From an uncultured bacterium (GTDB taxonomy: Bacteria; Zixibacteria; MSB-5A5; CAIYYT01), in assembly GCA_963726455.1 (NCBI GenBank), contig CAVSCK010000004.1, positions 64,001-128,000 on the forward strand: DNA of 64,000 bases, read 5' to 3'. The translations under genes and the position numbers were made by a program. This document shows positions 2,898 to 51,930 of the stretch, in pieces. Within the stretch, counting starts at the first letter, position 1; each line of letters begins with the position of its first letter. The notes under the pieces were generated by a model. The model saw only the letters and a program-made list of their open reading frames with translations. It did no database searches and was not told the DNA's origin.

Positions 2898-4562
2898 ATG
2901 ACGTTGATAATGCGCATTAAGATGCTTCATGTTCTGGCGATCTGCTGTTTCGCCCTGATGCTGGCGGCCGACTCATTTGCTGCTCTCTCCCCGATCGAGC
3001 AGGATGTCAAGGCAGGCATAATCAGCGAAAACGACGCGGTTATCTATCGGGCATTGGCAATCGTGCGCCCTGAAGCCGTGCCGACGCGTTATCTCTCGGA
3101 AGTTACGGTACCGGGTAAGTGCGCGACTGACGAAGTGCGTGAAGCCACGAAGATTATCATGTCCGACTCGACGGCTTACAAATCCTTCAGAGATATCCTG
3201 TCGCGACCCGTTACTCAGGTCGCCTACCAATCACCACAAGGATATTTCTGGTTGCACTATGATACTTCCGGGACGCATGCCGTGCCGCTTGCAGATGGCA
3301 ACGGTAACGGCGTGCCGGATTATATAGACCACGCGGCCAGCTATGCTGATTCGGTCTGGAGATACGAGGTTCAGGACTTGGGGTTCTTGCCGCCGCCTGC
3401 GGACGGAACGCAGGGTGGTGGTTTGGATCAGTATGATATCTATTTCCAGCGACTCACGGTATATGGCTACACGCAGTTAGAATCGCCGGGGCCGAACCCG
3501 TGGTACGACTACTCATCTCACGTCGTCGTCCATAACAACTTCAACGGCTTTCCACCCAATCAGGATCCGGAAGGGAATGTATACGGCGCGCTGAAAGTCA
3601 CGATCGCCCACGAATTCTGCCATGCGCTGCAGTTTGCTTATGATGCCGGAGAAGAGATCTACTTCATGGAGGAGACTTCGACCTGGATGGAGGATATGGC
3701 TTTCCCGGCGACGAATGACAATTACAATTACCTGCCGTATTTCTACAGCGTTCCGGAGCAGGGATTGCAGAAGACAGGTAATCATGAATACGCCGCCTTT
3801 ATCTGGCCGAAGTATCTGCAGGAACGTTTCGGTCCGGCTATCATTCGCGAGATTTGGAGTGAGTGCCGTTACAATTCCGCGATCGGTTCCTGGTCGTATG
3901 TGCTGGACTCGGCGGGGAGTAGCTTGCAGGATGAATTCACGCGGTTTCTGGTGTGGAACTACCACACCGGTGATCGGGCGACGCCCACGACATTTGTGTC
4001 GGGTGCGGACTACCCGCAGGTAAGCGTGATGCGATACACCGACGTTGTTCCGGATTCGAATCGAAGTTCCAGCGAACCACCGGAACCGTTGGCATCCAAC
4101 TATATTGTCATTAACAATTACTCCGGTTCACGAGGTATCCTGACGATCGACTTCACCGGCGTGGTCACCGCCAACTGGGGAATCGGATACGTGATAGATC
4201 ATGGTAACGGACAATTCGAGGATTCAGTCTGTACTACACTGCAGGGAACGTCGGCGAGGATCTCGATCCCGCATTTCGAGAACGTGCTGAAGGTGGCGTT
4301 CATTCCGGGCGTGACATCATCCTACGGCACATCGTGGAACTATCAATACACCATCTTCTGGCGCACTCCCGGCGACTTCAACGGTGACAACGTAATCGAC
4401 ATCTCGGATGCCGTAGCCGGAATCAACTATATCTTCGGCGATGGCCCGGTTCCTCAGCCACTGCAGGCGATGGACGCGAACTGTGACGGATATAATGACA
4501 TCAGTGATGTCACATACTTGATCACCTACATCTTTGGAGGCGGTCCCGCGCCTTGCTATTGA
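2898..4562 (+). CDS. Secreted Zn-metalloprotease (MXAN_6640-like) with C-terminal dockerin
   Basis: Signal peptide; AHEFCHALQFAY (HExxH) plus EETSTWME; duplicated DxNxD..DISD dockerin repeats at the C-terminus. Confidence 0.85.
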   Translation: MTLIMRIKMLHVLAICCFALMLAADSFAALSPIEQDVKAGIISENDAVIYRALAIVRPEAVPTRYLSEVTVPGKCATDEVREATKIIMSDSTAYKSFRDILSRPVTQVAYQSPQGYFWLHYDTSGTHAVPLADGNGNGVPDYIDHAASYADSVWRYEVQDLGFLPPPADGTQGGGLDQYDIYFQRLTVYGYTQLESPGPNPWYDYSSHVVVHNNFNGFPPNQDPEGNVYGALKVTIAHEFCHALQFAYDAGEEIYFMEETSTWMEDMAFPATNDNYNYLPYFYSVPEQGLQKTGNHEYAAFIWPKYLQERFGPAIIREIWSECRYNSAIGSWSYVLDSAGSSLQDEFTRFLVWNYHTGDRATPTTFVSGADYPQVSVMRYTDVVPDSNRSSSEPPEPLASNYIVINNYSGSRGILTIDFTGVVTANWGIGYVIDHGNGQFEDSVCTTLQGTSARISIPHFENVLKVAFIPGVTSSYGTSWNYQYTIFWRTPGDFNGDNVIDISDAVAGINYIFGDGPVPQPLQAMDANCDGYNDISDVTYLITYIFGGGPAPCY

Positions 4563-4585: not shown

Positions 4586-6607
4586 ATGGAGGTCAATTTG
4601 CTCAGACGGATTATTGTAACGGCATGCCTGTTGTTCATCGCAACATCAGCGCTCGGGGCATCCAAGTCGTCATATCAGCTTATTCAACGGGCCTACAAAG
4701 ACGGCCTTCTCACCAACGAACAGAAGCTGCTGCTGGAAGTCCGTTCGGTCAAGAATCCGTCATCGCTGCCGCTGGCATATCAATCCACGGTCATCGAAAT
4801 TGCCAAGTGCGCGACGGACATTCTGCTCGAAGCGAAAAGCAATTTCAACGATCTCAGCGCCGCAGGCCAAACGGAGATGAGAAACATTCTGGCGCGCCCC
4901 TCAGCGACCAACGTTTTTGACAGTCCGGGAGGCAAGTTCAAGATTCATTATAACATCTCCGGCCCTAACGCAGTACCGCTGACAGATTCCGACGCCGATG
5001 GGATACCGGATTACATTGAATGGCTGGCCGGCTATGCTGATAGTTCATATCGCTCCGAGGTTCTGGGATTGGGACAATTTGAACCGCCCAGCGACGGTGT
5101 CGCCGGCGGCGACTCGCGGTATGACATCTACACCGAGGAAATGGGCTATTACGGCTACACGCAATCTGAAGGGGGCGGACCGAATCCCTGGAATGACGCC
5201 TATAGTTACATTTCGGTGCATCGCAATTTCCTGGGGTTTCCGCCCAACAACGATCCCGAGGGCAACCAAAAGGGCGCAGCCAAGGTTACGGTAGCCCACG
5301 AATATTACCATGCCGTTCAGTTTGCCTATAACTATATGGAGGAAGCCTGGCTGATGGAGGCATCTTCGACCTGGATGGAAGATTTCGTGTATCCCCAGGT
5401 GAACGACAATTACAACTATCTATCCAGTTGGTTTGGTTATCCGGACTACGCTTTGAATTCCACCACAAATTTGCATCAGTATGCTGCCTTTATCTGGCCG
5501 AAGTATCTGTCGCAGAATTTCGGGTCGGCGATCATGCCGGAACTTTGGAATCAGTGCATTTATTCGAACGCCTATCCGGCGCTGACCACGGTACTGGCAA
5601 ATCATGGGCGCGCGCTGAACAGCGAGTTTGCCGAGTTCTGTTCCTGGAATTTCATCACCGGTTCGCGCAATGACCACGAGCATTTTCTGGATGGGTCATA
5701 TTACCCGCTGATCTCGACAGTCCGGACACACACGACCTATCCGGTTACCGGGCAGGGACCGTTGACAGGCAAAGCTCCGGATGCGATGGGCGCCAACTAT
5801 GTCATCTTCACGCTGCCGGGCGGAACCGGCAATTTCACTGTCGACTTCAACGGTGATAATTCGACTCCTTGGATTGTCAATATCCTGGGTTGGAAGTCTT
5901 CGGGCGGCACCAACATTTACCAGGAGTTCCAGATGACGCTGAATGGCAGCGGCGATGGCTCATACACAGTTGTGAATCCGCAGGACTATACCTATATCGT
6001 CATGGTGATCTCTAACACGAGCCAGAGTCTTAATGATCGCGGCTATGTTTACGGAGCCAGTTTCGTCTCGGCGCCGCAATATGCCGTTGTGGTTAATGCG
6101 GTCGCCGACGATAGTCTTTATTCCCACACAAAGACACACTTAATCTACAACGTGCACAATACCGGCAGCAATGCCGAAACATTCACGCTCGCCGCCGCCG
6201 ACAGGCGCGGCTGGAGCATCCTGCCCTCGCGAAATCAGATTACGTTGACATCAGGCGCGACCGACACCGTTTCGGTCTCAGTCCCAGCGCCGGCGATGAC
6301 CAACGAAGGCGTCAAAGATACGGTAATGTTGACGGCGACATCGACATCAGCAACGGGGGTTTCGGACACTGACTCGGCGACGGCGTTGGTGTTTGTCCAG
6401 AACGGCGATGCCGACAACAGCGGCAGTCTCGATATTTCCGACGCCGTGTATCTGATCGGCTACATCTTCAACTCGGGTGCCGATCCGATGCCGGTGATGG
6501 ATGCCGGTGATGCAAATTGCGATGGTGCCGTGGATATCTCAGATGTCGTCTTCCTGATAGCATATATCTTCAATTCGGGACCACCACCACCCTGCAACCC
6601 TTTTTGA
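4586..6607 (+). CDS. Secreted Zn-metalloprotease paralog (MXAN_6640-like) with Ig/NEW3-like domain and C-terminal dockerin
   Basis: Signal peptide; AHEYYHAVQFAY, EASSTWME; VHNTGSNAETFTL Ig-like segment; dockerin GDADNSGSLDISD / GDANCDGAVDISD. Confidence 0.85.
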   Translation: MEVNLLRRIIVTACLLFIATSALGASKSSYQLIQRAYKDGLLTNEQKLLLEVRSVKNPSSLPLAYQSTVIEIAKCATDILLEAKSNFNDLSAAGQTEMRNILARPSATNVFDSPGGKFKIHYNISGPNAVPLTDSDADGIPDYIEWLAGYADSSYRSEVLGLGQFEPPSDGVAGGDSRYDIYTEEMGYYGYTQSEGGGPNPWNDAYSYISVHRNFLGFPPNNDPEGNQKGAAKVTVAHEYYHAVQFAYNYMEEAWLMEASSTWMEDFVYPQVNDNYNYLSSWFGYPDYALNSTTNLHQYAAFIWPKYLSQNFGSAIMPELWNQCIYSNAYPALTTVLANHGRALNSEFAEFCSWNFITGSRNDHEHFLDGSYYPLISTVRTHTTYPVTGQGPLTGKAPDAMGANYVIFTLPGGTGNFTVDFNGDNSTPWIVNILGWKSSGGTNIYQEFQMTLNGSGDGSYTVVNPQDYTYIVMVISNTSQSLNDRGYVYGASFVSAPQYAVVVNAVADDSLYSHTKTHLIYNVHNTGSNAETFTLAAADRRGWSILPSRNQITLTSGATDTVSVSVPAPAMTNEGVKDTVMLTATSTSATGVSDTDSATALVFVQNGDADNSGSLDISDAVYLIGYIFNSGADPMPVMDAGDANCDGAVDISDVVFLIAYIFNSGPPPPCNPF

Positions 6608-6772: not shown

Positions 6773-8611
6773 ATGGACCTAAAGCAGCTCGGTAAGTACG
6801 AAATCATTGATAAACTTGGTGAGGGGGGATTCGGCGCCGTCTATCTCGCCAATAATACGAGACTGAAGAAACGGGTGGCCTTGAAGGTGCTGCATCCGCA
6901 GGTAGCATCGGATGAAATGCTGGCCGCCTATTTCGAACGTGAAGCCCTGGCTCTGGCGCGCCTGGAGCATGCCAACATCGTGCGCGTTTATGACTACGAC
7001 CAGATCGACGGTGTCAGCTTCATCGTGATGGAGTTTATCGACGGCACGAATCTCGACAAGCTACTGCGCGATACCCGCAAGTTCTCGACCGAGGAAATTG
7101 TCTCGATGTTCCGGCAGTTGTTGTCGGCACTTGGGTATGCTCACGAGCATGGCGTGATTCATCGCGACGTCAAGCCGTCGAATATCATGCTGACGAACAA
7201 GGGCGAAGTCAAGATTACTGATTTCGGAATCGCCAAGGTTGCCGGGGGCGCTAAACTGACGCGCACCGGTACGGGAGCGGGATCGCTATTGTACATGTCG
7301 CCCGAGCAGATCAAAGGCGCCAACATTGACAACCGCAGTGATATCTACGCGACCGGTATCACTTTGTATCAGGTGGTCGCAGGGCGCACGCCGTTTGAGG
7401 CCGATTCCGATTATGAGATAATGACGGGCCATCTGGAAAAGCTGCCACCATCACCGTGTCAATTCAAGGGAGATATTCCGAAGGATCTTGAGCAGATCAT
7501 TCTCAAAGCGATCGAGAAGAAGCCGGAGAAGAGATACCAAGATGCGCAGGAAATGTCGGATGCGTTGGGAAACGTGAATCCAGCACCGACCAAAGTTCGC
7601 TCGGACGAATTTGCGCGGACAACCGCAATTCCGCGGCGTCCCAAAGCCGGCGCGTCGGGCAAGAAGATGCTAATTCCTGCACTGGCCCTATTGCTGGTTG
7701 TCGCCGTCGTCGCCGGCTGGCTCTTGACACGAGGGGGGAAAAAGGAGGAGGCAGTCAAGCCGACGCAGCAAACGTTCGCGGATTCGCTGACGACAGCGAA
7801 GACTCTCTTCAGTCAAAAGGATTTCTCCGGCGCCGCGTCTGTTCTTTCAGTGCTACAATTGTCGGCGAGCGCTGACCAAACGACGAAGGGCGATATCCTT
7901 CAGTATCTCGCAGCGTCGCGACTGATGTTGGGAGATTCGGTTGAGGCCAAAGCAATTTTCTCGGAATTAAGGCAATTGAATCCGTCGACTTCATTTTCGC
8001 CCGACAAGTTTGGTTCGGTGGCGGCAGAATCATGGAAGCGATTCGTCAGTCCCCCTTTAGTCGCGCAAAGCAACACGCAAACGATCAAGTCAAACGAAGG
8101 CGGCAGCCAGAAGCCGACTACCCAAAATGAAGGCACGACAACGCCTTCCGCCGGGAGTCTGTCGGTGACGGTGACTAACTGGAAAATCTTTGAACCGGTA
8201 GTGGTTATAATCGACGGGAAACGTGAGGATTATGCCGGCAATCCGCTGGTGTTTGCCAATGTTAGTGGTGGGACACATGAGGTAGGTATGGTTACCGATT
8301 TAGGGACGCTGACCGACCAGGTTCAGGTCGGGAGTGACAAAACGGAATATACATTCAATCCCAGCGATCATTTGACCAGCAAGCTGACGGTGACGTCGCT
8401 GGTGGCCAACGATCCCAACGATATCGTTTCCGCCCAGGTGTATATCGACAACGTCAAGATCGAGGACGGGCAGACGCCCTTCAATACCAGACTAATGAGC
8501 GGTCCGCACAAAGTCTGGGTTGACGACAAGAACTACCGTACCGATGGTAAACCGAAATTCGTGGATCTCGACAAGGACAAAGAGGTTGAATTCGTCCTCA
8601 GGAAAAGATGA
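6773..8611 (+). CDS. Hanks-type membrane Ser/Thr protein kinase with extracytoplasmic TPR-like and PEGA-like domains
   Basis: GEGGFGAV, VALK, HRDVKPSN, DFG, YMSPEQ; TM helix at about aa 300-318; AQVYIDNVK..GQTPF..GPHKV PEGA-like C-terminus. Confidence 0.95.
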   Translation: MDLKQLGKYEIIDKLGEGGFGAVYLANNTRLKKRVALKVLHPQVASDEMLAAYFEREALALARLEHANIVRVYDYDQIDGVSFIVMEFIDGTNLDKLLRDTRKFSTEEIVSMFRQLLSALGYAHEHGVIHRDVKPSNIMLTNKGEVKITDFGIAKVAGGAKLTRTGTGAGSLLYMSPEQIKGANIDNRSDIYATGITLYQVVAGRTPFEADSDYEIMTGHLEKLPPSPCQFKGDIPKDLEQIILKAIEKKPEKRYQDAQEMSDALGNVNPAPTKVRSDEFARTTAIPRRPKAGASGKKMLIPALALLLVVAVVAGWLLTRGGKKEEAVKPTQQTFADSLTTAKTLFSQKDFSGAASVLSVLQLSASADQTTKGDILQYLAASRLMLGDSVEAKAIFSELRQLNPSTSFSPDKFGSVAAESWKRFVSPPLVAQSNTQTIKSNEGGSQKPTTQNEGTTTPSAGSLSVTVTNWKIFEPVVVIIDGKREDYAGNPLVFANVSGGTHEVGMVTDLGTLTDQVQVGSDKTEYTFNPSDHLTSKLTVTSLVANDPNDIVSAQVYIDNVKIEDGQTPFNTRLMSGPHKVWVDDKNYRTDGKPKFVDLDKDKEVEFVLRKR

Positions 8612-8664
8612 AAAGATTTGCGGTCAAAATAGAATAATAGTAGCTTTACTTAAAGGAGTGGATT

Positions 8665-9672
8665 ATGAGAGCTATCATCATATCCTTGTTAGCGTGCCTG
8701 CTGCTGACGACATCGTTGTTGGCACAAGGCAATAGCGCTGATGAGATCAAAAACATCGGTGAACTTTATCGCCAGGGGAAATTTTCTGATGCCGTGATCA
8801 AAGCCACGGCGGTGCTGGCCAAGCCGGGACTCACGCAAAGTGACAGTCTGCAAACCATCCGCTGGCTGGCACGGGCGGCGGCACAGAATAATCAGGCCGA
8901 TCTGTCGCAACAGTATTTGGCGATACTGGTAAAGATGGATCCGAACACCGATTTCGATGGTGACAAGGAACCGGCTCGTTTTGCCAAGGTCTGGTTCAAG
9001 TTCATCGGCGACACCAAATACACTCCGGGTGAAAGACAGAGTAAGCTGGGCGTCGCTGTTGTTGAATTCGACAACGGTTCGTTTGAGGATGCGGACAAGG
9101 TGAAGAATGCCGGCATCGGTATAGCCGCCATGATTCGCTACGACCTGGAATCCTCCGGCGCAGTGTATTCGCCTTCGCGCGAGCATTTCAATTATCTGTT
9201 GGACGAACTGAAATTGTCGCAGACCGACATGGTTGACAAGGATCAGAAGGTGCAAGTTGGCAAGGTGATCGGCGCCAAGAATTTTATTTTCGGCACGTTC
9301 TTTAACATGCCGGGCAACAAGTTTCGTATTGACGCGCGCATAATCGAGACCGAGACCACTTTGCCCAAGCAGCAGTTTTCGGTGGAGGGCAAAGCGGGAG
9401 ATATCGGCAAGCTCACGGTAGAATTGACCAAGAAGATTCTGGCTTACTTCAATGTCCAGGCCGATGCCATCAAGAAGGCGGGCGCCAATATTCCGAACGT
9501 CAACCTGGCGGCGCTGATCGAATATTCGAAGGGTGTTGCTTACGAAGACAAGGGACAGATGGATCTGGCAAAGAAGGCGTATTCCGAAGCCATTAAGATA
9601 TCGCCAAGCTTCGCGCTGGCGTCTGATCGTCAGCAACGTGTCGAATTGGAGCAAAAGTCAAGCAACGAATGA
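8665..9672 (+). CDS. Exported TPR + CsgG/HfaB/TolB_N-like domain protein
   Basis: Signal peptide; VAVVEFDN...LLDELKLSQT...QVGKVIGAKNFIFGTF...IDARIIETET; C-terminal TPR. Confidence 0.8.
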   Translation: MRAIIISLLACLLLTTSLLAQGNSADEIKNIGELYRQGKFSDAVIKATAVLAKPGLTQSDSLQTIRWLARAAAQNNQADLSQQYLAILVKMDPNTDFDGDKEPARFAKVWFKFIGDTKYTPGERQSKLGVAVVEFDNGSFEDADKVKNAGIGIAAMIRYDLESSGAVYSPSREHFNYLLDELKLSQTDMVDKDQKVQVGKVIGAKNFIFGTFFNMPGNKFRIDARIIETETTLPKQQFSVEGKAGDIGKLTVELTKKILAYFNVQADAIKKAGANIPNVNLAALIEYSKGVAYEDKGQMDLAKKAYSEAIKISPSFALASDRQQRVELEQKSSNE

Positions 9673-11054
9673 TTGCTAAGGAACGGCAACATCATTTATC
9701 ACAGGACGAGATGAAACGCAGTTCTTCTCACGAGCGAGGTGTGTTCTGCGGATTTTCCGGGAAGCTGCCGGCCATGATCATCGCAGGTTTGTTCGCGATC
9801 GCGTTATTGGTGCAGACGGCGCCGGCGCAGAATGTCACTCCCGCCAAGAAGAGTGCGAGCGAACAGGCCATTGACAAGTACAAGGCGCAACTTGAGAAAT
9901 CGCCTAACAAGCCCGAACTCTGGCGGAAACTCGGCATCAGCTATTTTCAGGCCCAACGCAGCGACGAGGCGCTGACGGCTTTTGACAAGGCAAGCTCTCT
10001 GGACGCAAACGACGCGACCTCCGTTGTCTATCGTGGCATGATCAACGAGCAGAAGGGGAATCTGGATCAGGCGCTGAACTTGTATCGAAGTTACCTCGCT
10101 TTCAACAAACAGGATCGCCTGTCGCAGGAAATCAAGTACCGCGTGCGCTGGCTTGAAGACAACCAACTCAAGCAATTGGTCGATCAGGCGGTTGCCAACG
10201 AGAAGAAAGTTCAGATCGCCGACATTCCGAAGAACAGCATAGCGATAGTACGCTTCAACGTCGATTCCCTGTCATCACAACTCAGACCACTCGGGCGAGG
10301 ATTGGCGGAACTGATTTACACTGATCTTTCGTACGTCCCAGAACTCAAACTCGTCGAGCGTTTGGAACTGGCGCGCCTGCAACAGGAACTTGATCTCAAC
10401 CAGTCGCAGTTCTCAGACAAGCTTTACGCTCCCCGGCTAGGCAAGATAGTCGGCGCAGCCAAGATCGTTACCGGACAAGTGAGCGAATTGGATGCTGAAC
10501 GGATCGGTGTTGATTGCGGAATTGTCGATGTCGGCCCCGGGCTGTCGGAATATCCTGGCCGCCAGGAAGGCAAGATGGCCAGTATCTTCGCGATGGAGAA
10601 GAATCTGGCGCTATCGATTATCAAGACCCTTGGTTACGAAATCACACCGGCGATCAAGAACCAAATCGACAAATCGCCCACAGAATCATTCCTGGCGCTG
10701 CTGGCTTATTCGCGAGGACTGGATTACGCCGATCAGGGGCTCTATCCATTAGCGGCAGAAGAATTCAAAGCCGCGCTGGTAGATGATCCGGGTTTTGCCG
10801 CGGCGAAGCAGCAACTCAATCAGGTTTCGGGCCTGGCGAATTATAACGGTACTCTGAAACCAATCGCTCAGATAACGGGGCTCATGGATCAGAAGAATGC
10901 GACGGACGATCTCAAGGTGAACAACATGGCTGAGATCATCGGGCGTCTCCAGAATGTGACACGCGGGGTTATCCCTCCGGGGGATGTACCATACCTGACG
11001 CCGCAAGAATCCCGGGGCAGAGTGATAGTCACCGGAAGGACGGAACCCCAATGA
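9669..11054 (+). CDS. Exported TPR + CsgG/HfaB-like domain protein (true start may be later)
   Basis: ATGA overlap with previous gene; several TPRs; IAIVRF...LKLVERLELARLQQELDL...RLGKIVGAAKIVTG. Confidence 0.8.
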   Translation: MIAKERQHHLSQDEMKRSSSHERGVFCGFSGKLPAMIIAGLFAIALLVQTAPAQNVTPAKKSASEQAIDKYKAQLEKSPNKPELWRKLGISYFQAQRSDEALTAFDKASSLDANDATSVVYRGMINEQKGNLDQALNLYRSYLAFNKQDRLSQEIKYRVRWLEDNQLKQLVDQAVANEKKVQIADIPKNSIAIVRFNVDSLSSQLRPLGRGLAELIYTDLSYVPELKLVERLELARLQQELDLNQSQFSDKLYAPRLGKIVGAAKIVTGQVSELDAERIGVDCGIVDVGPGLSEYPGRQEGKMASIFAMEKNLALSIIKTLGYEITPAIKNQIDKSPTESFLALLAYSRGLDYADQGLYPLAAEEFKAALVDDPGFAAAKQQLNQVSGLANYNGTLKPIAQITGLMDQKNATDDLKVNNMAEIIGRLQNVTRGVIPPGDVPYLTPQESRGRVIVTGRTEPQ

Positions 11055-12208
11055 TGCGGTCACCGGCTGTCATACTCATGACCGTGGTCTTCGCATTGGC
11101 CGCGTTTGATGGTGCTTCAGCGCAGATCATCTACGGCACGCCTGCGAGTTTCAGTGATCAAATCATATATCAAAACTGGAAATTGACCGCCGGTTCCGGA
11201 GGAAAAGATACTACGGTCTCACAGATCGTGATGCCGTTGAGAGTCTATGTGCCGATTGCCCCGCACTGGGAAATGCACTTCAACGGCGCTGTCAGCAACT
11301 CGAAACTAAACAATGCACGGACTTCCACGAGTGTTTCATCTGCCGGCCTTTCGACGGTACAGGTTTATCGCGCTTTCGCGAAGGACCGCCTTTATGCAGC
11401 CGCCGGGTTGGTGCTTCCGACGGGAAAGACCGGGTACGATACGTTGCAGCTTCCCGTGGCGCAAATCATCGCCAATGACTATCTCAACATCCCGCTGAAG
11501 CAACTTGGCGGCGGATTCGGAATGACAATTCAGACCGGCGGTGCTACGCAATACAACTGGCTCCTGTATGGGGGCTCGGTCGGATACACATACACGGGCA
11601 GCTATACATATCTGTCCGGCGGTGACAAATATAATCCAGGTGATGAGATAGTTGTTCAGGGTTCGGCCACCGCCGTCGGCAGAGTAACCAGTCTCGATGT
11701 GGATGTGTCCTACAAATACTACACGGCCGACAAGGTCGGTTCGAATCAGATTTTCAAAGCCGGTGGTGTGGCCAGCGTGGTCATGACCGGCAGGTACGAT
11801 TTTGGTGTCGGCCGAGCCAGTCTGTCGTTAGCAGAAATAGTGCGCAGCAAGAACTCGCTACAATTTGGAAACGCGCTGCGAGCCGACAGCGCCAAGGCCA
11901 ACGGAAACAAGTCAATTGTGGCGGGTACCATCAGCTACGAGTTCGTACCGCAGTGGAGTTTTTCACTGCTGGCTGATTATCGCTTGCTGGCTGCCAACGG
12001 ATATCGCACGACGTCGGAGAAGTACTTCGGCAAGTCGGATTTGTTCAGTTTCGGCGGCGGCTTGGAATACCACGACGCGAGCGACCGATTCTCATTGACG
12101 GGCAAAGCGGTCTACAGCACCGGTGAGGCGAACAAGGACAATGTTAACAGCAGCAGTATCTCGATCTCTGGCTTCGAATTTTCGGTGGGAGGCAGGGTAC
12201 GACTGTGA
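11051..12208 (+). CDS. Putative outer-membrane beta-barrel protein
   Basis: Signal peptide; alternating amphipathic Tyr/Gly-rich strands; ends FSVGGRVRL. Confidence 0.7.
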   Translation: MMRSPAVILMTVVFALAAFDGASAQIIYGTPASFSDQIIYQNWKLTAGSGGKDTTVSQIVMPLRVYVPIAPHWEMHFNGAVSNSKLNNARTSTSVSSAGLSTVQVYRAFAKDRLYAAAGLVLPTGKTGYDTLQLPVAQIIANDYLNIPLKQLGGGFGMTIQTGGATQYNWLLYGGSVGYTYTGSYTYLSGGDKYNPGDEIVVQGSATAVGRVTSLDVDVSYKYYTADKVGSNQIFKAGGVASVVMTGRYDFGVGRASLSLAEIVRSKNSLQFGNALRADSAKANGNKSIVAGTISYEFVPQWSFSLLADYRLLAANGYRTTSEKYFGKSDLFSFGGGLEYHDASDRFSLTGKAVYSTGEANKDNVNSSSISISGFEFSVGGRVRL

Positions 12209-13017
12209 GTCGAATCGCGAAATTCATAGGTCTGTCAGCAATTGCGGCGATCATCGTTGTCGGTGGCTGCGCCACGAAACCGGTCGCACCTGCAAATGGC
12301 CAGCAGGTCGCGATTTCAACGTCCCTGAAGCAACTTGGAGTCGGCAGCGAAGTCTCGCGCGTGTCTCTGACGGTCAGGGGAAGTGATTTTCCAAGCGCCA
12401 GCCAGGATTTGACTCTGACAAACGGCGCGGTGCGCGCCGAAATTGATGTGCCGTTTGGAACGAACAGGATATTCGAACTGACCGCTTATGACGGCGAGAC
12501 CGTGCTTTACTTCGGGGCGGACACGGCTGATGTCAGTGCCGGAGTGGTGACGGAAGTTTTCGTCTACCTGCGGCCACAAGTTCCGATGATCAAGATCAGC
12601 CCTTTATACAGCAGCAGAAACAATCCCGGACTCAATGGTACTTTCAATGTCGAAGTTCACAATATTGACTCCCTGTTTGGCATTTCGTTCCGGCTGGAGG
12701 TCGATACTTCGATTATCCAGTTCACCAGTGCCGAGGCGGGCGATTTCCTTGGCAGCGCCGAGAACACCTTATTCTTCGTGCAGACATACCCGCAGTACCT
12801 TGCCGTTGGCTATACGCTCAGAGGCAATCGCGAACCACAAGGAGTGAGCGGATCGGGCACGGTGGCCAATGTGTTTTATAATGCCAGAAGAGTTGGGAGG
12901 ACCGCCGTGACGATCAATCCCGCCTACTTGAGGTTGATTGATTGGCAGGGCAACCCGCTGCCGCGCCAGGGCCGGATATATATCGAGAGTGGGGAGGTGG
13001 AAGTCCTTGCGCAATAA
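12205..13017 (+). CDS. Lipoprotein with C-terminal cohesin-like domain
   Basis: Lipobox VVGG-C; FNVEVHNIDSLFGISFRLEVDTSIIQFTSAEAGDFLG...GVSGSGTVANVFY matches the cohesin pattern. Confidence 0.75.
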   Translation: MSRIAKFIGLSAIAAIIVVGGCATKPVAPANGQQVAISTSLKQLGVGSEVSRVSLTVRGSDFPSASQDLTLTNGAVRAEIDVPFGTNRIFELTAYDGETVLYFGADTADVSAGVVTEVFVYLRPQVPMIKISPLYSSRNNPGLNGTFNVEVHNIDSLFGISFRLEVDTSIIQFTSAEAGDFLGSAENTLFFVQTYPQYLAVGYTLRGNREPQGVSGSGTVANVFYNARRVGRTAVTINPAYLRLIDWQGNPLPRQGRIYIESGEVEVLAQ

Positions 13018-16000
13018 TTGGAGATTAACAGGACTGCTGTTTTTGTGTCTTGCCGTGTCGAGTGTACCGGTTGCACAGGGGAGGATCTTCTGGGTCGCCA
13101 ACGGTGGCTCCAATACCAACCCGGGTACTGAGCTACTCCCTCTAGCGACAATCAGTCACGCGGTATCAACCATTTCTCCGGGCGGCGGAATCGACACTGT
13201 GACGGTGAAGCCGGGACTATATTCTGATTCGGTAACGTTTGGCACACTTGCAGTAGTACTGATGAGCTCCAAAGGTGCCAAGGAGACAGTGATCAACGGC
13301 GCAAATCATAACGTTCCGGTTGTCTTCAATGCCGGTACACCGACGTCAACATCGTTGAACGGCTTCACGGTCAGAGGTGGAAAGGTGTCGGGCATCGCAG
13401 TGGTTGGCACTTTCTTTCCAGCCACGAATGGCACAACCCCGTCATCGCCCGAAATCAAGAATTGCATCATTCGCCGGAACGGTGGCAAATCGGCCTTCAA
13501 CGGCGCCGGAATATCACTGCGCTATTCGCAGGCCAGTTTGCACAACAATCTGATTGATTCCAACTATTCCATGAACAATGGCGCCGGAATCCATTCTTAC
13601 TATAGCGCACCGAAAATCTGGAGCAATCGTATCGAAAATAATGCCGTCACCAGCGAAGGCGGAGGCGGCGGAATGTATATCGTTGGGTTGATCGATACCC
13701 TGGCGAAGACGTTGATTCAGAACAATCTGTTCATTCGAAACCGCGCGGTCAATTACGGCGGAGGAATAGCAGTTAATGCCGACAGCGTATATTTCCTCAA
13801 CAATCTGGTGTATGGCAATTCCATCACAACCCCCAGTTACAGCGGCGGGATTCAGATCGACTATAGCACGATAGTGCTCCGCAACAATATCATAGCGGGT
13901 AACAACCCCTATGGCGTCGAATGTTATGGCGGCCCCATTTTTGAAAACAACAGCTTCTACGGCAATCTTCCGGCTGACCAACTGTCGATAATGTGTTATC
14001 TCGACAACACCAACCGTATCGGGATCAACCCAACGTTCGTCGATACTCTAGCAGGGGATTTTCACCTTAAGCAGACTTCGCCTTTGATTCACGCCGGATC
14101 GCCGAAAATTACAGAGGGAGTGAATGTTGATTTCGATGGTTTTCCGCGAGCAACGGCGGGGCAGATTGATATTGGACCTTACGAACAAACGATATGTGAT
14201 ATGATACCCGGCTTCTCGGCGCCGGCTTCAGCTTGTACCGGCCAGAAGGTAACACTGGGGAACACGTCTGCCGGTCACTATACCATGGCGATCTGGGATT
14301 TTGGCAACTCTGTCGTTGATACATTTATGAATGTCGATCCAACCCAACCGCCGATTTCGCCTACCATCGTATACCCGACTCCGGGCGACTACGCTCTTAA
14401 GCTCAAGCTCATCTGTCCCTATGACACTGCTGTCACGCTGGCAAGGACAATTGCGATTGTCAACAAACCGGTACCGGGATTCACCGTCGACACAAGTCAG
14501 GGATGTTCGCCATTGACAGTGCAGTTCATCAACACTACCACCGGTCTGGAGCACACCGATACCTGGTACTTCGGCGATGGCATGACATCAACAGAAGTTA
14601 ACCCGTTACACATTTATGCCGAGGCGGGGATATTCACTGCGAAACTCGTGTCAGCAAATACCTGCGGTATAGATTCAGTCCAGCATACCATTACTGTTCA
14701 AACGGGATCGCGAGCGACAATTGCCGCTGATATCACGCGCGGCAGCCCGGTCCTGACAGTTACGTTCACCGGCAGTGCGACCAACAGCCCGACCGGATGG
14801 CTGTGGAATTTCGGAGACGGAGGCACGGCGACGACGCAGGTTGCCTCTCACAACTATCAGGATGCAGGTATCTTTGACGTTAGCCTGGCGGCAACAAACG
14901 CCTGTGGGACGGGAACTCCGGAAGTGCGCACCGGCTTGATAACGGTGTATGGATTTATCCTGAATCAGGCATCTTTCGACACCACCAACCGTTTCCAGCA
15001 GAAATTCACGGCGAAAATTGACTCATTGTATGGCTTCTTCAACCGCAATATCAATTTCACGGCGACGACCTCGCCGCCACCGACTCGGGGATCGATTGGT
15101 GTGACACTTAATCGCACTACCGCCAGTTTGCTGGACAGCGTCACTGCGACCGTCAGTCTGAGCCGTGATGTTCCCTCATCATCTTTCTACACCCTGCGGC
15201 TGATTGGACAGTCGGTGTCCAACCGTCCCGTTGATACGCTTTTCTGGCGATTCAACTCACACCCCGACACGTTGATCAAACTGTCGGCAGGAGCTATTGT
15301 TTTCGACTCAGTTCAGGTCGATACCTTTGCGATCGATTCTGTCAAGATCACCAATACATCGGGAATCCAGAATCCGTTGAATCTCCGGGTGCTGGACGTT
15401 ACCAGCAGTGATCCCGTTTTTGTGCCGCTTGATACAGTTTCGGGAATCCTGCAGCCGAATGCGACGTTCTATGTCCACGTAAAATTTAGACCGTCGGCGG
15501 TCGGAGACAAATCGGGATTCCTGACGATTACCTCCGACGATCCGGCTCTGCCGAGTTTACTAGTGACGCTAAATGGGAAGGCAATACCCGAGCGTAAGCC
15601 ACCTTTGGTGTTGGCGACAGTGCCGGAGAGCAACGCGAATGCTGCTTTGATCGGAACGCCAATCGAGTTCGATATGTCGGATCAGATGGACCCGACCTCC
15701 GTCGTATCCGGCTCCGTGGTTGTGCATTCACGCCATGTAAACGCCGACCTGCTCGGTTCCGTGCGGTTGACGGGACAAACCAGAATTATATTCGTACCGC
15801 AACAGCGATTCCCCGGCTACGACACAATCAGTGTCAGACTGCTGGGCACTGTCCGGGACCTGGCAGGAAATACTCTTGATGCCAACGGTGACGGCAGGGG
15901 AGACGGTTCGCCGGCGGACGATTACATTTTCTCGTTCTTTACCGGACCGGCAGTTTTCCCGGGTGACTGCAACAATGACGGCGCTGTGAATGAAATGGAC

Positions 16001-16630
16001 GTTCTGCCGCTCGGAGTATTTTTCGGCGTGTACGGACCGCGACGCGATAGTCTTGGAGAAGAGACCGGCTGGGGGCCGAAACAGGCGGTTGAATGGAGTG
16101 ACAAGAGGGCCACGTATGCCGACGCTGACGGCAATGGCACCGTTAACGCCGAAGATCTGCTGATCATTGCTCTCAACTGGGGTGGTTCGCATTCCCCAAG
16201 CAGGCCTCTGTATCCGGACGATTTTGACTATCGCCTCTATGCGGATGGTCTGGCGAAGCTGGCAGCCACAGTTAAGCACATGGCTGGCACTCCGGCTGGC
16301 GATAATATTGTGCGAATCCTGAATACGTATACATCTTCGACTCAGATTCCCGAGCAGTATCAGTTATCGCAGAATCAGCCCAATCCGTTTAATCCGGTGA
16401 CCGTGATCGAATATTCTCTGCCGAAGGGCGGCGAAGTGAACCTGAGCATTTACAACATCCTCGGCCAAACAGTTAATGTGTTAGTTGATGAGTACAGGGA
16501 CGCCGGATATTACCGTGCAACGTGGGATGGCAGGGACCAATTTGGCAAAGAGATAGCGTCGGGAGTTTACTTCTACAAATTGACTGCAGATAGCTTCTCA
16601 CAAATCCGCAAGATGATCAAACTGCGGTAA
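13007..16630 (+). CDS. Large secreted protein: right-handed beta-helix, 3 PKD, ASH/Ig-like, Big_5-like, atypical dockerin, T9SS type-A/FlgD-like CTD
   Basis: GGAGG RBS then in-frame TTG at 13007 giving a signal peptide; GGG/N-rich beta-helix repeats; WDFGN, WYFGDG, WNFGDG PKD motifs; GDCNNDGAVNEMD / ADADGNGTVNAED; QNQPNPFNP...SGVYFYKL..RKMIKLR. Confidence 0.85.
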   Translation: MRNNWRLTGLLFLCLAVSSVPVAQGRIFWVANGGSNTNPGTELLPLATISHAVSTISPGGGIDTVTVKPGLYSDSVTFGTLAVVLMSSKGAKETVINGANHNVPVVFNAGTPTSTSLNGFTVRGGKVSGIAVVGTFFPATNGTTPSSPEIKNCIIRRNGGKSAFNGAGISLRYSQASLHNNLIDSNYSMNNGAGIHSYYSAPKIWSNRIENNAVTSEGGGGGMYIVGLIDTLAKTLIQNNLFIRNRAVNYGGGIAVNADSVYFLNNLVYGNSITTPSYSGGIQIDYSTIVLRNNIIAGNNPYGVECYGGPIFENNSFYGNLPADQLSIMCYLDNTNRIGINPTFVDTLAGDFHLKQTSPLIHAGSPKITEGVNVDFDGFPRATAGQIDIGPYEQTICDMIPGFSAPASACTGQKVTLGNTSAGHYTMAIWDFGNSVVDTFMNVDPTQPPISPTIVYPTPGDYALKLKLICPYDTAVTLARTIAIVNKPVPGFTVDTSQGCSPLTVQFINTTTGLEHTDTWYFGDGMTSTEVNPLHIYAEAGIFTAKLVSANTCGIDSVQHTITVQTGSRATIAADITRGSPVLTVTFTGSATNSPTGWLWNFGDGGTATTQVASHNYQDAGIFDVSLAATNACGTGTPEVRTGLITVYGFILNQASFDTTNRFQQKFTAKIDSLYGFFNRNINFTATTSPPPTRGSIGVTLNRTTASLLDSVTATVSLSRDVPSSSFYTLRLIGQSVSNRPVDTLFWRFNSHPDTLIKLSAGAIVFDSVQVDTFAIDSVKITNTSGIQNPLNLRVLDVTSSDPVFVPLDTVSGILQPNATFYVHVKFRPSAVGDKSGFLTITSDDPALPSLLVTLNGKAIPERKPPLVLATVPESNANAALIGTPIEFDMSDQMDPTSVVSGSVVVHSRHVNADLLGSVRLTGQTRIIFVPQQRFPGYDTISVRLLGTVRDLAGNTLDANGDGRGDGSPADDYIFSFFTGPAVFPGDCNNDGAVNEMDVLPLGVFFGVYGPRRDSLGEETGWGPKQAVEWSDKRATYADADGNGTVNAEDLLIIALNWGGSHSPSRPLYPDDFDYRLYADGLAKLAATVKHMAGTPAGDNIVRILNTYTSSTQIPEQYQLSQNQPNPFNPVTVIEYSLPKGGEVNLSIYNILGQTVNVLVDEYRDAGYYRATWDGRDQFGKEIASGVYFYKLTADSFSQIRKMIKLR

Positions 16631-20214: not shown

Positions 20215-20216
20215 AT

Positions 20217-32869: not shown

Positions 32870-33024
32870 TTGTCTTTTCCAAAACCGCACTCTAATCTCC
32901 TCGATAAATTCCTTGACATCAAAATTGGATAATGTCTATCTTCTCTCAGCACAAAACAAGAATCCGAATTCGAAAAATAGCCACCTTTGGCGGCTGCTTA
33001 ACTCATTCCTCACAGGAGGGTAGC

Positions 33025-35147
33025 ATGAAGCACGTTGTTTACGCATTGATTATGGCGGCAATGCTCGTGTTAATCGTTGCGCCGGCAGTCTTCGGAATCG
33101 ACTCCGAGACGAACATAGCAGCATTGACGACGACTGACCGGGGCACAAAAGATGAGGTTATGCTGACCTACGACGGCAGTGCTCTCTGGCAGGGGTCGTC
33201 AGGCGTCTGCGTTGCCGGCAATTATGCATATCTGTTCTTATTCTATGGGATCCTGGTGTTCGATCTTTCGAATCCTTCAGCTCCCATCAATGCCGTTGAC
33301 CTTTTCGACGAGGGATCAACGTACAAGATCAGAGCGCAGGCGGGGAATCACATCTACACCGAATCTTACGGGGGACATTTCTGCATAATCGATATCTCGA
33401 TTCCCGACAAGCCGAGCCATGATACTCAATTACCCGCTACAGGGCTGGATGCGCGACCTGGACGTCGTGGGAAATCACGTGTACATTGCTATGGATTCCA
33501 CGCTGGAAATATCTGGATATCACGATTCCAACCGCGCCCATTTCACTGGTCAGATATCGTCTCCCGCTTCAGACCTATGACATCACAGTAATCGGGAACT
33601 ACGCCTACATTGCCTGCCGAGACTACGGCATGCTCATTGTCGATGTCTCGAATCCTGCCAGTCCGAGTTTGGCAAAGAACCAGCCGCGCGTGAATGCAGT
33701 GGATGGCGTCGATCGTGCGGGGAACTACCTGCTGTCCATGCTGACGACGGGAGTCACTCTGATCAGCGACGTCACGAACCCCGAATCGCCGTTGACGCTG
33801 GGATCGTTTCCTTCGGTCTTCAAGCTCGGCGCCAGCGGCAACTACCTGATGGGATTGTATTCTGACACGGTTCGCGTAATCGATATTTCAAATCCAGCCG
33901 CACCATTCACGGCCAATTATTGGTTGTCCCCCGGCTTTGCCAATCGGGCCGGGACGGCAACCGCAAACTGGTTGCTGACGACGGAATGGAATGGCAGACT
34001 GGACATCTTCGACATTACGGACGTCATGCAGCCGTCGCTGGTTTCGCAGTACCGGTCGCCTGAATATATGGCTGCCTACGACATGCAGATCAGGGATCGT
34101 TACGCCATGATTGCCTCAGCCAACGGCCTCAGAGTTGTTGATGTTTCGGATTCCACCCGTCTGGACGTCGTAGCCACCCTGGATCTTGGTCGCCGTAGCA
34201 GACAGATCGCTCTGAGTGGCAATTATGCTTACATGCTTGCCGACAGTCTTGACCTCGCGATTGTTGATATCTCTAATCCTCTGGCGCCTGCGCCGGTGAG
34301 TACGCTGCTTTGTTCTGGGTATTCGCAAGACCTGACCGTCTCAGGCAACCATGTTTACATCGCCGACGGAGACCAGGGACTCACGGTCGTGGATGTCAGC
34401 GACCCGGCGACGCCCTTCATCGCCGGGCACTCCGACCTGGGCCTAACTGCGGGTCATTATGCCTTTTGTGTCGAAGTCTCAGGCAACTACGCGTATCTGT
34501 CAGGCCATAGCCGCGAGATATTCATAGCAGACATTACGGAACCCACTAACCCGCAACTTGCCGGAGTCTACACACCCGAAACCTCGCAGTGGATTGAGGA
34601 TATTCTGATAAATGGAAATCGAATGTACCTGTCGGACTCGCGTTATGGAATGCAGATTTTCGACCTCAGCGACCCTCTGGCGCCGATTCTGCTTGGTGGG
34701 GTTGCCGATAATTACCAATGGTATGCGCTGCCGCAATCGCTTCGGCTCGTGGGTAATTATCTCTATCAGACCGACTACGGGCTCGGCCTGAGGATCATCA
34801 ATGTCGCCAACCCGACCGATCCGTATGTTGCCGGTCAGTTCAAAACTCTGCCGGGATGGTCGATGGAGTCCGGCATCTTTGGCCAGTACGCTCTGATTGC
34901 GACTGACAACGGCCTGTTGCGCGCGAAATTCAGCAGCCCGATTTGTGGTGATGTGGATGCCAGTGGCGGCGTCGATATCTCCGATGCCATCGCGATCATC
35001 CAGTACATATTTTCAGCGGGTTATGTCGGACATATTCCGGCTCAGGCCGATGTCAATTGTGACGGGTCTCCGGACATATCAGACGTTGTCTACCTGATCA
35101 GTTACATCTTCGGAGGCGGACCTGCGCCCTGCGCCGGCTGCAAATAG
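33025..35147 (+). CDS. Secreted LVIVD-repeat beta-propeller protein with C-terminal dockerin (apparent frameshifts about 33420-33510)
   Basis: AGGAGG RBS; signal peptide; repeated GNYAY....L.IVDVSNP units; CGDVDASGGVDISD / ADVNCDGSPDISD. Confidence 0.85.
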
Positions 35148-42829: not shown

Positions 42830-43780
42830 ATGCGAACATTCTTAACGTTCGTGACGGTGTTCGTCACCGCACTGTTCTTCTTTCCCAGTGTCTCCGTTTT
42901 CGGGGCGGACCACGACCGCGATGGCATTGACGATGCCGTCGACAACTGCATCGTCATCCCCAATCCGGATCAGACTGACAGCAACGCCGACGGTGTCGGC
43001 GATGCGTGTGATTACTCGGCTCCCAACAGAGGCGATGTTCACATCAGCTTCAACGGGGGTGCCGACAAGCTCTACATTGGTGAAGACAACATTATGGAAA
43101 TCTGGATTGCTAACGGCGCTCCCGTTTGGGGAATGTCAATCGGCTTCTCCTTTGCCACTCCTGATAGTTTCCACTTTGTATCACCGTATGGCAATGCCCC
43201 TTCGACGGGAAAGCGTTGTGCACAGCTTTACGGCAAAGTACTCGAAAGCCTTTGCTTCACCGATTATGGATGCAGGTTTCAGGTTTCCAGAACCGCTGGT
43301 TGGGATAGCATTCTCTTGGGTGGGGCAGCGCAAGATTTTCCTATGGCAGCAGCTCCCGGGCACGAACTGGCGATCAAAATGAAAATATTCGTGCCGCCAC
43401 TTCAAAATGAGCTACCCGGAGGATTTTGCGTTGATAATATTTTCTATCCGCCTGCCGGTCCCTGGAAATTCGACTCAGGCAGCGGCAATACTTACCCGCC
43501 CGATTTCCAGGGCAATCCTAACACGAGCGTTCAGAATCCCGATGCTCCGCCGGTATGCTTCGACCTTGTACTTCCTGATTATATACCCGGTGATGCAAAC
43601 GCGGACGGCTCGGTCGACATCAGCGATAATATCTATTTGATCGCCTATATCTTTGGCGATGGTTTCGCACCAAATCCGCCCATGTCCGGCGATGCGAACT
43701 GCGACGGCGTTGTTGACATTTCCGATCCAATCTTTCTGATCGCTTATATCTTTGATAACGGTCCGGCGCCGTGCCAATAG
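42830..43780 (+). CDS. Secreted protein: TSP3 repeats, cohesin-like beta-sandwich, dockerin
   Basis: [32 protein letters not shown]; EIWIAN...WGMSIGF; [14 protein letters not shown] / [13 protein letters not shown]. Confidence 0.8.
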
Positions 43781-46702: not shown

Positions 46703-46892
46703 CTGCACAAACCGAGCTGTTCCCGGGCGATCACATAAGTTATTCCGCAGACGTCCCGCGTAAGCATAAGTCCAAACGGGACGGACGATCACCCTGTGCC
46801 CTCCTACAATAGTGCTTGATTTTTCTGCCATTTCTGGTATACTAGGCATCGTCATACCCAAAGGTCCCCGTACTTACCCCGGAGGTTCACCC

Positions 46893-51740: not shown

Positions 51741-51930
51741 ATATTGCCTTCTTTCTTTCAATCCCATGAAACCATATGGTCATCTCTTTCGTATCAACAA
51801 CGAGTTTCTCCTAGACGGATGTCCACCTCCTGAAGATGCCACTTACATCTTACCCAATGGTTACTATCCTGATGTACTCACAAATAACGGCGGCGGGGTA
51901 CGACAAGCTCTGCCACTTGTCGATTTTGAA

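Follow-up and report, generated by a model that had tools for sequence, protein, structure and literature searches.

Two overlapping genes of an uncultured member of the Zixibacteria, referred to here as 12205 and 13007 after their first nucleotides, encode a lipoprotein that, as judged from its predicted structure, is built on a true cohesin fold, and a type IX secretion system (T9SS) cargo whose internal dockerin very probably has 12205 as its dedicated partner. Both genes lie in a window of 64,000 nucleotides, i.e. the whole stretch of DNA that was analysed (G000:C4:64001-128000, the genome G000 comprising 3.64 Mb in five contigs). We estimate at about 65% the probability that two separate cohesin-dockerin systems coexist in this organism: system A, a genome-wide system whose dockerins mostly carry Ile-Ser (I-S) at positions 10/11 of their calcium loops (IS dockerins), and system B, the dedicated pair in which 12205 would tether its T9SS cargo 13007. 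What supports this explanation directly is that the predicted folds fit, that each module is unique in the genome, that gene pair and interface are conserved, and that the two module subtypes occur elsewhere as cis fusions. An earlier note on this DNA had set an 'IS' dockerin code against an 'EM/AE' one; its idea of two classes, with a dedicated 12205-13007 pair, is well supported by independent lines, the binding itself being modelled, and its two-letter code appears too simple.

The cohesin lipoprotein and the T9SS cargo protein

12205..13017, + strand: cohesin lipoprotein 12205, 270 aa (lipobox signal peptide up to Cys22, Ig-like beta-sandwich at about aa 33-110, cohesin at about aa 125-268)
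12667..12693, + strand: predicted dockerin-contact strand, aa 155-163 of 12205 (D-S-L-F-G-I-S-F-R), residues 158-163 being in the predicted interface
13007..16630, + strand: protein 13007, 1207 aa (signal peptide, right-handed beta-helix region, two PKD domains, Ig-like domains, Big_5, internal dockerin, T9SS type A C-terminal domain)
15959..16192, + strand: class-B dockerin, internal in 13007 (Pfam Dockerin_1)
16364..16630, + strand: T9SS type A C-terminal sorting domain, or CTD (TIGR04183, 37.2 bits against a cut-off of 23; Pfam FlgD_ig/Por_Secre_tail)

The cohesin assignment of 12205 comes from its AlphaFold2 (AF2) model (pLDDT 83.9, pTM 0.75), in which an N-terminal Ig-like sandwich is followed by a C-terminal cohesin-like domain; in Foldseek every listed match is a cohesin chain, the best being 4uyq_A (E 1.8e-10, TMt 0.80) and the further ones including 2xdh and 6kgf (E ~1e-10, TMt ~0.8). 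Homologues 39-42% identical to 12205 (P0029-P0032, P0034, P0035) hold a precomputed match to the Pfam Cohesin family PF00963; no NCBIfam family was found for 12205, nor for the small downstream cohesin lipoproteins of two other loci (L071, L078). The lipobox reads V-G-G-C at residues 19-22, and across an alignment of 28 homologues C22 does not vary and G21 shows at least 90% conservation; F158, G159 and R163, within the strand listed above, are likewise invariant in the 28 sequences. A hidden Markov model (HMM) of this cohesin subtype, termed B-type, retrieves 12205 from the genome at 8e-68 and one partner-less paralogue at 7.5e-8, the next match standing at 1.7e-3; the other cohesins of the genome are not recognised by it.

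The domain order of 13007 was obtained from Pfam and NCBIfam, which were used for all domains of the window, and Beta_helix/NosD domains of Pfam are seen in its orthologues. Translation from the TTG codon at 13007, the start chosen in the earlier note, is well supported by a GGAGG motif ~9 nt upstream and by an 11-nt overlap with the 12205 gene, stop codon included; the longer open reading frame (ORF) extends from 12938. The loops of the internal dockerin, DCNNDGAVNEMD (15965-16000) and DADGNGTVNAED (16121-16156), do carry E-M and A-E at positions 10/11 as had been read, and the T9SS-like tail reported behind them is a CTD of type A. The genome also encodes SprA (636 bits, cut-off 200) and PorU (720.8 bits, cut-off 420), so that export of 13007 by the T9SS and removal of its tail are plausible.

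Pfam Dockerin_1 recognises the dockerin at 2.3e-8, its 34.5 bits exceeding the cut-off of 22.9. Assignment to Dockerin type I was based on a PF00404 match above gathering together with two 12-residue loops bearing D or N at positions 1, 3, 5, 9 and 12, and both loops of 13007 have D or N at all five; the two-segment symmetry of type I, with segments of ~22 residues and a short linker, was not found in this dockerin. Its repeats are dissimilar and start 52 residues apart (33 in the IS dockerins), with a conserved, Trp-bearing insert of ~40 residues, and a Big_5 Ig-like domain (aa 887-983) lies immediately upstream. In a census of the genome's stop-to-stop ORFs, for which an HMM was made from the dockerins of this same genome, 151 dockerin domains were counted; that of 13007 alone among them has an acidic residue at position 10, which makes it a real outlier; no paralogue of its dockerin was found in the genome by phmmer or by a class-B HMM (self-match 2.7e-40; next domain at an independent E-value, i-E, of 0.05).

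The hallmark of this dockerin class is not the pair of letters proposed for each loop. Among 25 orthologue sequences, position 10 of loop 1 is E in all 25, position 11 is occupied by nine residues (M in 10, I in 6, Q and L in 2 each, F, K, S, A and V in 1 each), and loop 2 shows ten pairs at positions 10/11 (AA in 8, VT in 4, VA in 3, EN and ED in 2 each, and five more), one orthologue being unmatched by the pattern. 'EM/AE' is ruled out as a conserved code by this variation, only E10 being fixed. Invariant in the 25-row alignment are E1019, D1021, L1023, P1024 and G1026 (in repeat-1 numbering E1019 is E10, L1023 is L14, P1024 is P15 and G1026 is G17), together with Trp, Gln and Ala positions of the insert; because of their invariance, N-E-x-D-x-L-P-x-G plus the insert, rather than E-M / A-E, is taken as the signature of class B.

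Evidence for a probable dedicated pair

Four lines, namely census, synteny, a complex model and the fusions and adjacency seen in the wider family, make 12205 very probably the dedicated partner of the dockerin of 13007. As far as full members of the subtypes are concerned, the genome holds a single class-B dockerin, that of 13007, and a single B-type cohesin, that of 12205, plus one diverged paralogue. Twenty loci encode a homologue of 12205: in 16 of them an intact downstream gene bears a class-B dockerin and a CTD motif, in one (L017) the downstream gene is frameshift-broken but retains both, and the remaining three are cut by a contig end; the pair is therefore kept in 17 of 17 assessable loci, down to a cohesin identity of 26%, at which the cargo protein has grown to 1620-1784 aa and the dockerin is still there. 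The genomes of L022 and L024 keep the pair with only 10 and 13 dockerin matches, the others having 100-148.

The complex was modelled from the cohesin (aa 120-270 of 12205), the dockerin (aa 1000-1100 of 13007) and two Ca ions, in three runs and with three controls; the ipSAE values for the pair were 0.91, 0.90 and 0.91, against 0.24 for the best control, at least 97% of the contacts were shared between runs, and the partner pLDDT was at least 81. On the dockerin side the predicted interface comprises residues 1018-1020 (loop positions 9-11), 1022-1031 (helix 1; repeat-1 positions 13-22) and, in repeat 2, 1071, 1074, 1077, 1078 and 1081; on the cohesin side it comprises 158-163, 189, 191, 193, 200-209, 241, 243, 245 and 247-249. 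It thus overlaps conserved residues of both proteins (E1019, L1023, P1024 and G1026 of the dockerin; F158, G159 and R163 of the cohesin). The strand motif D-S-L-F-G-[IAV]-[SA]-[FL]-[RT] is found in 17 of 17 partner-linked cohesins, again down to 26% identity, and is lost in precisely those two relatives that lack a dockerin neighbour: the paralogue on contig C3 of the same genome, and L005. Co-variation between cohesin and dockerin was also considered in the 17 pairs; the joint changes (cohesin 201, 203, 205, 206 and 247; dockerin 1027, 1029, 1030 and 1081) occur only between two deep clades, amount to one event confounded by descent, and were not counted.

The suggestion that 12205 is the dedicated anchor of 13007 is accordingly backed by the one-to-one census, the 17/17 synteny, the complex score of 0.91 against 0.24, and the occurrence of a B-type cohesin in or beside 52 of 80 dockerin loci (see below). 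Actual binding of the two proteins, exposure of the lipoprotein at the cell surface and specificity against the IS dockerins are what we infer from these observations. In the mechanism envisaged, 12205 would be an outer-membrane lipoprotein presenting the cohesin of its C-terminal half, and 13007, a beta-helix/PKD protein made from the translationally overlapping gene, would leave the cell via the T9SS, its tail being probably removed by PorU after export; repeat 1 of its dockerin (N9, E10, M11, followed by V-L-P-L-G-V-F-F) would then rest on the cohesin face that holds the D-S-L-F-G-x-S-F-R strand, with secondary contacts by helix 3, so that 13007 would be tethered to the lipoprotein in one binding mode.

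The class-B dockerin across phyla

When the full library was searched with the dockerin segment, 3187 representative proteins matched at E <= 1e-3, among which the weaker ones may include ordinary dockerins, and 560 of them reached E <= 1e-10. Among the best 150 relatives 147 were new, and these were analysed further. They contain 112 sites of the loop pattern, 85 of which belong to proteins whose last 120 residues include a CTD-like motif, and in 51 of the 147 a 12205-like cohesin is present in the same chain (cis-cohesin calls being made by single-sequence phmmer at i-E < 1e-3), usually in the order cohesin-dockerin-cohesin-CTD or dockerin-cohesin-CTD. Position 10 of loop 1 is Q at 49 of the sites, E at 32 and A at 16, and a cis cohesin accompanies 30 of the 49 Q sites versus 1 of the 32 E sites. 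In the metagenomic proteins P0181, P0182, P0203, P0206 and P0218 a cohesin, a class-B dockerin with Q at position 10, a second cohesin and a T9SS tail follow one another, sometimes repeatedly; such an arrangement could allow head-to-tail chaining of surface proteins.

Genome contigs were then covered by a locus scan with the dockerin pattern (at least 604 matches, at least 369 confirmed), of which the best 80 loci were kept; they combine the insert-bearing dockerin with a T9SS tail and belong to Zixibacteria, Bacteroidota, Ignavibacteriota, Cloacimonadota, Marinimicrobia, Poribacteria, Eisenbacteria, KSB1 and Latescibacterota. A B-type cohesin is fused in cis or adjoins in 52 of these 80, distributed as follows.

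In cis, in the dockerin ORF itself: 16 of the best 80 loci
In a neighbouring ORF, upstream: 18 of 80
In a neighbouring ORF, downstream: 16 of 80
In a neighbouring ORF, opposite strand: 2 of 80
No B-type cohesin, both flanks present: 12 of 80
No B-type cohesin, a flank missing: 16 of 80

The gap between the dockerin gene and the neighbouring cohesin ORF is mostly between -82 and +134 nt, and 25 of the 36 neighbouring cohesin ORFs carry a lipobox-like motif by a regular-expression check. The downstream cohesin type, found in metagenome-assembled genomes (MAGs) labelled Bacteroidota, Cloacimonadota, Ignavibacteriota and Marinimicrobia, is an ORF that measures ~170-230 aa from stop to stop, in most cases has a lipobox, and comes without the kinase cassette that precedes 12205. 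In the best 80 loci the residues at positions 10/11 follow the arrangement, E-[M/I/L/A/G] going with an upstream lipoprotein, x-R with a downstream one and Q-A with cis cohesins; this correlation, confounded by descent, is a lead and no proof of a code.

Weighing of the evidence and presumed specificity of the pair

Several points weigh against the view that 12205 and 13007 form a dedicated surface tether. The Pfam Cohesin match of 12205 (PF00963, 22.0 bits, E 2e-4) is under the gathering cut-off of 24.1. The complex score may reflect, according to the tool's own warning, model memory of solved cohesin-dockerin pairs, and the calibration of the tool, in which the score mark was met by 116 of 157 solved complexes and by 2 of 215 mismatched pairs, does not extend to a model computed, as here, with own alignments and riding Ca. 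Two relatives of 12205, the C3 paralogue and L005, stand in CsgG-like/barrel operons without a dockerin gene, and among the best 80 loci the B-type cohesin was not found in 12 of the 64 that have both flanks. A lipobox is no proof that 12205 lies at the surface, and if the lipoprotein faced the periplasm the tethering model would have to be altered. Finally, the relative G005 has a second class-B dockerin protein away from any cohesin gene; this 967-aa protein (L048:9547-12450), with a T9SS tail, has E-R in loop 1, and a second cohesin lipoprotein was looked for beside its gene and none was found, so that a single lipoprotein of this kind may have several clients.

The most serious competitor, though an unlikely one, accepts the binding and denies its orthogonality: 12205 would take IS dockerins too, or 13007 would also dock on CTD-anchored cohesins, the residues at positions 10/11 being lineage signatures. 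It gains from the free drift, among orthologues, of positions 10/11 of loop 2 and position 11 of loop 1, and from two distant relatives (G004 and G005), in which the ordinary C-terminal dockerins read I-V, V-V, I-L or V-L. The 13007-type dockerin of the same relatives keeps N-E-[A/G]-D, so that positions 10/11 hold a lineage and a class signal at once. Against this competitor, the two classes differ at nearly every predicted repeat-1 contact (N-E-M-D-V-L-P-L-G versus D-I-S-D-A-V-Y-L-I); E10, P15 and G17, invariant in class B, are absent from 150 of 150 other dockerin domains of the genome; and the B-type cohesin HMM ignores the other cohesins of the genome.

The IS dockerins and their candidate receptors

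4371..4562, + strand: IS dockerin 1, C-terminus of the DUF6055 protein 2898-4562 (Pfam and motif scan)
6404..6607, + strand: IS dockerin 2, C-terminus of 4586-6607 (Pfam and motif scan)
34947..35147, + strand: IS dockerin 3, C-terminus of the LVIVD-repeat protein 33486-35147 (Pfam and motif scan)
43589..43780, + strand: IS dockerin 4, C-terminus of 42830-43780, a protein with a cohesin-like central domain (Pfam and motif scan)
44562..44750, + strand: IS dockerin 5, out of frame in 43811, loops 44565-44600 and 44664-44699, with the sole N-I-S-D loop
47571..47768, + strand: IS dockerin 6, C-terminus of 46812-47768 (Pfam and motif scan)
49932..50132, - strand: IS dockerin 7, C-terminus of 49932-51767 (Pfam and motif scan)

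A six-frame motif scan, by which all loops of the window were located, yields 14 EF-hand-type loops in these seven C-terminal dockerins, with D-I-S-D at positions 9-12 in 13 and N-I-S-D in 1, in full agreement with the I-S reading of all 14 repeats given in the earlier note. Pfam Dockerin_1 matches six of the seven gene products, the seventh dockerin being in a different frame, downstream of the frameshift in gene 43811. In all seven the repeats are near-identical and spaced by 33 residues, which is the symmetry feature of type I. The I-S pair is not, as had been supposed, a property of seven proteins. The genome has 148 dockerin matches by Pfam, and the 151 domains of the census are distributed over 142 ORFs, 137 of them ending no more than 25 residues from the ORF end; among these 137 C-terminal dockerins loop 1 is I-S in 103, loop 2 in 110 and both in 99, a minority type I-A accounting for 14 cases in loop 1 and 11 in loop 2, and a Cys occupies position 4 of loop 2 in 105. 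Since I-S is the genome-wide default (99/137), seven IS/IS dockerins in a row are expected about once in ten, (99/137)^7 = 0.10, and the 14 of 14 I-S loops are ruled out as a peculiarity of the window.

Dockerins and T9SS-type tails are distributed over 142 and 55 ORFs of the genome, respectively, and coincide in two only, 13007 and the cohesin-bearing C5:151556-153859; C-terminal dockerins and T9SS tails are therefore almost mutually exclusive tags.

As to the receptors, the earlier note had assigned the IS dockerins to secreted cohesin-like proteins of the window, and for 42830 a cohesin-like fold is borne out: its middle domain (AF2, pLDDT 82.2) has mostly cohesins among its top Foldseek matches (E ~1e-5, TMt up to 0.68). 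In 46812 a Pfam Cohesin match below threshold covers aa 57-129, and both proteins also end in IS dockerins, in the manner of adaptors. Comparison of the 12205 family with 46812 and 42830 by hhalign gave nothing usable (probability 2.3% and 0.3%), and an ESM Atlas look-up with the middle domain of 42830 gave leads below 0.9 only, one cluster having Cohesin on 13% of its members. In the whole genome there are 17 Pfam cohesin places versus ~150 dockerins. Six cohesin-bearing proteins have T9SS tails, three of them clustered at C5:151-160 kb; in this cluster (C5:151553-160885) T9SS-tailed proteins of 759, 821 and 923 aa, with cohesins and internal non-IS dockerin-like modules, are followed by a protein with a cohesin and an IS dockerin, and the 923-aa protein begins with a cohesin-like domain common to 42830 and 43811 of the window. 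The CTD-anchored cohesins are at least as good candidates for IS-dockerin receptors as the cohesin-like proteins of the window. The internal dockerins of some of them are of the types V-A / V-I and 'GDINLNG', which implies more than two dockerin classes in the genome; two clearly different classes do stand side by side in the window.

In system A, then, ~137 secreted proteins terminate in a near-identical, symmetric, Cys-bearing dockerin with I-S loops. Its receptors would most probably be found among the genome's remaining cohesins, some of them held by a T9SS tail and others part of IS-dockerin proteins. It is improbable that the IS modules instead act chiefly as C-terminal tags, for stability or for sorting into an export route other than the T9SS, system B being the only true cohesin-dockerin pair. 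Their position at the ORF end in 137 of 151 domains, the near exclusion between dockerins (142 ORFs) and T9SS CTDs (55 ORFs, 2 with both), the Cys at position 4 of loop 2 in 105 of 137 and the 17 cohesin places for ~150 dockerins would all be accounted for in this way. A large surplus of dockerins over cohesins is, however, normal in cellulosome producers, and several multi-cohesin proteins with T9SS tails are encoded in the genome. The symmetric repeats, moreover, match known dual-binding dockerins as outlined in PMC8063739.

Some irregularities were noted among the IS-dockerin genes. In 43811, a paralogue of 42830 with a TSP3 repeat and a cohesin-like domain, the frame changes near 44520-44530, either by a real frameshift or by an assembly error at a short C/G run. 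The ORFs 32932-33591 and 33486-35147 overlap in different frames and both contain LVIVD repeats; they look like one frameshift-split gene for a signal peptide, an LVIVD beta-propeller and an IS dockerin. The 245-aa product of 51949-52686 (- strand) is similar to the first ~200 residues of the adjoining 611-aa IS-dockerin protein 49932-51767, of which it looks like a truncated tandem paralogue. Beyond the window, a 527-aa ORF (G000:C4:507298-508878) has five tandem dockerins, four internal and one C-terminal; the internal ones read I-S / T-N in three cases and V-G / M-A in one, and no other domains were found in the scan.

The kinase/CsgG-like/barrel cassette

6773..12208, + strand: cassette genes upstream of 12205 (Pfam domains), namely:
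6773-8611, + strand: membrane Ser/Thr kinase (Pfam)
8665-9672 and 9669-11054, + strand: two TPR and CsgG-like proteins (Pfam)
11051-12208, + strand: putative outer-membrane barrel, without a Pfam or NCBIfam family

The cassette is closed by 12205 and 13007, and its gene order is kept in L002, L003 and L004. In a MAG labelled Deferrimicrobium, outside the Zixibacteria, a PEGA-type Ser/Thr kinase, two CsgG/TPR proteins, a barrel and a cohesin-like lipoprotein follow one another with no dockerin gene (L005:102-6829), the lipoprotein being fused to leucine-rich repeats. A second module of TPR/CsgG-like proteins, barrel and cohesin-like lipoprotein, again with no adjoining dockerin gene, is present in the genome itself (G000:C3:232571-236660); here the lipoprotein has 502 aa, extra C-terminal domains (CarboxypepD_reg-like by sequence reading, and others) and no contact strand. 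Such dockerin-less cassettes imply for the lipoprotein family a role tied to the envelope complex, for which a dockerin is not needed, and they fit the idea of a payload that the lipoprotein carries either as a fusion or by docking.

Even less probable than the tag explanation is that 12205 is a structural subunit of a kinase/CsgG-like/barrel envelope complex, merely co-regulated with 13007 and never in direct contact with it: the cassettes of L005 and C3, with the extra C-terminal domains of their lipoproteins, and the possible memory of solved complexes behind the high score are in keeping with it, but in 16 loci (Bacteroidota-, Cloacimonadota- and Ignavibacteriota-type) the same cohesin subtype lies directly behind the dockerin gene with no kinase cassette, another 16 loci have it in one chain with the dockerin, and conservation of the contact strand is confined to cohesins that have a dockerin partner.

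On the other side of 13007, and divergent from it, 17182-20957 (- strand) holds the genes of a T9SS-tailed M6 peptidase of the immune inhibitor A-like kind, of a DUF5723-like protein and of more exported proteins; the order of these genes is kept in L002-L004.

Relation to known systems

Positions 10/11 are well established as specificity determinants of dockerins, and in clostridial type I pairs these positions together with the following helix make the contact with the cohesin, as PMC8063739 outlines. With these pairs (1ohz, 2ccl, 2vn5/2vn6; OlpA/OlpC 3ul4, 4dh2) 12205 shares the cohesin fold, all of them being among its Foldseek matches, and 13007 shares the two 12-residue Ca loops above the Pfam threshold; the contact predicted for system B also involves positions 10/11 and the following helix, and OlpA/OlpC, like 12205, present a single cohesin on a cell-bound anchor. 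Unlike them, system B occurs in a diderm host and has a lipoprotein rather than an SLH protein as anchor; its dockerin is internal, asymmetric, interrupted by the ~40-residue insert and followed by a T9SS tail; and it is apparently a one-to-one pair, not one scaffold for many enzymes, with no carbohydrate-active enzymes seen.

In the type II / X-dockerin pairs (2b59, 5k39, 4fl4) and the type III pairs of Ruminococcus flavefaciens (4iu2, 5n5p, 5lxv) a second class, which does not cross-react, provides attachment beside a bulk class for enzymes, as would be the case here if the presumed orthogonality holds; the single asymmetric binding mode (predicted for 13007) and the Ig-like module directly upstream of the dockerin (Big_5 in 13007) are further likenesses, sequence kinship being at the general family level. 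The anchoring class of system B, however, attaches one cargo protein and not a scaffoldin, and the scaffoldin-like proteins of the genome bear other internal dockerins.

A T9SS cargo with a dedicated neighbouring outer-membrane partner is known from type B CTD proteins and their PorP/SprF-like partners, such as SprB/SprF of Flavobacterium johnsoniae, where the cargo gene likewise adjoins the gene of its envelope partner; in system B the partner is a cohesin lipoprotein, the CTD is of type A, and the contact would be made by the dockerin and not by the CTD. System A is matched by the cellulosome-like system predicted for Ca. Stygibacter (Cloacimonadota), in which C-terminal dockerins go with a scaffoldin carrying a T9SS CTD (PMC8542988): it too is of the Fibrobacteres-Chlorobi-Bacteroidetes (FCB) type and combines dockerin-tagged peptidases and other enzymes with T9SS-tailed cohesin proteins, and in what that account outlines no T9SS-cargo dockerin paired with a neighbouring cohesin lipoprotein is described (PMC8542988). 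In the literature, as judged mostly from listings, no description of such a pair was found.

Significance

Among modular protein connectors, cohesin-dockerin pairs are the best known, and synthetic biology makes wide use of them; to our knowledge, their roles outside cellulosomes are mostly undescribed. In this genome a bulk dockerin system of ~137 clients appears to stand beside a dedicated pair of T9SS cargo and lipoprotein. As a tentative generalisation, against which the odds still lie somewhat, a class-B dockerin before a T9SS tail, with its cohesin next door or in cis, might be a general mechanism, so far undescribed, by which FCB-type bacteria keep T9SS cargo at the outer membrane or link it into surface polymers, position 10 of loop 1 marking specificity groups (E with the upstream kinase-cassette lipoprotein, x-R with small downstream lipoproteins, Q-A with cis cohesins) that would let several tethers and the bulk system coexist without cross-talk. 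Should the binding and the specificity of the 12205-13007 pair prove true, they would represent a new answer to the question of how T9SS cargo is retained at the surface without attachment to lipopolysaccharide, would make available natural connectors of diderm origin that are presumably orthogonal to one another, and would offer a direct test of positions 10/11 as a specificity code far from the clostridia.

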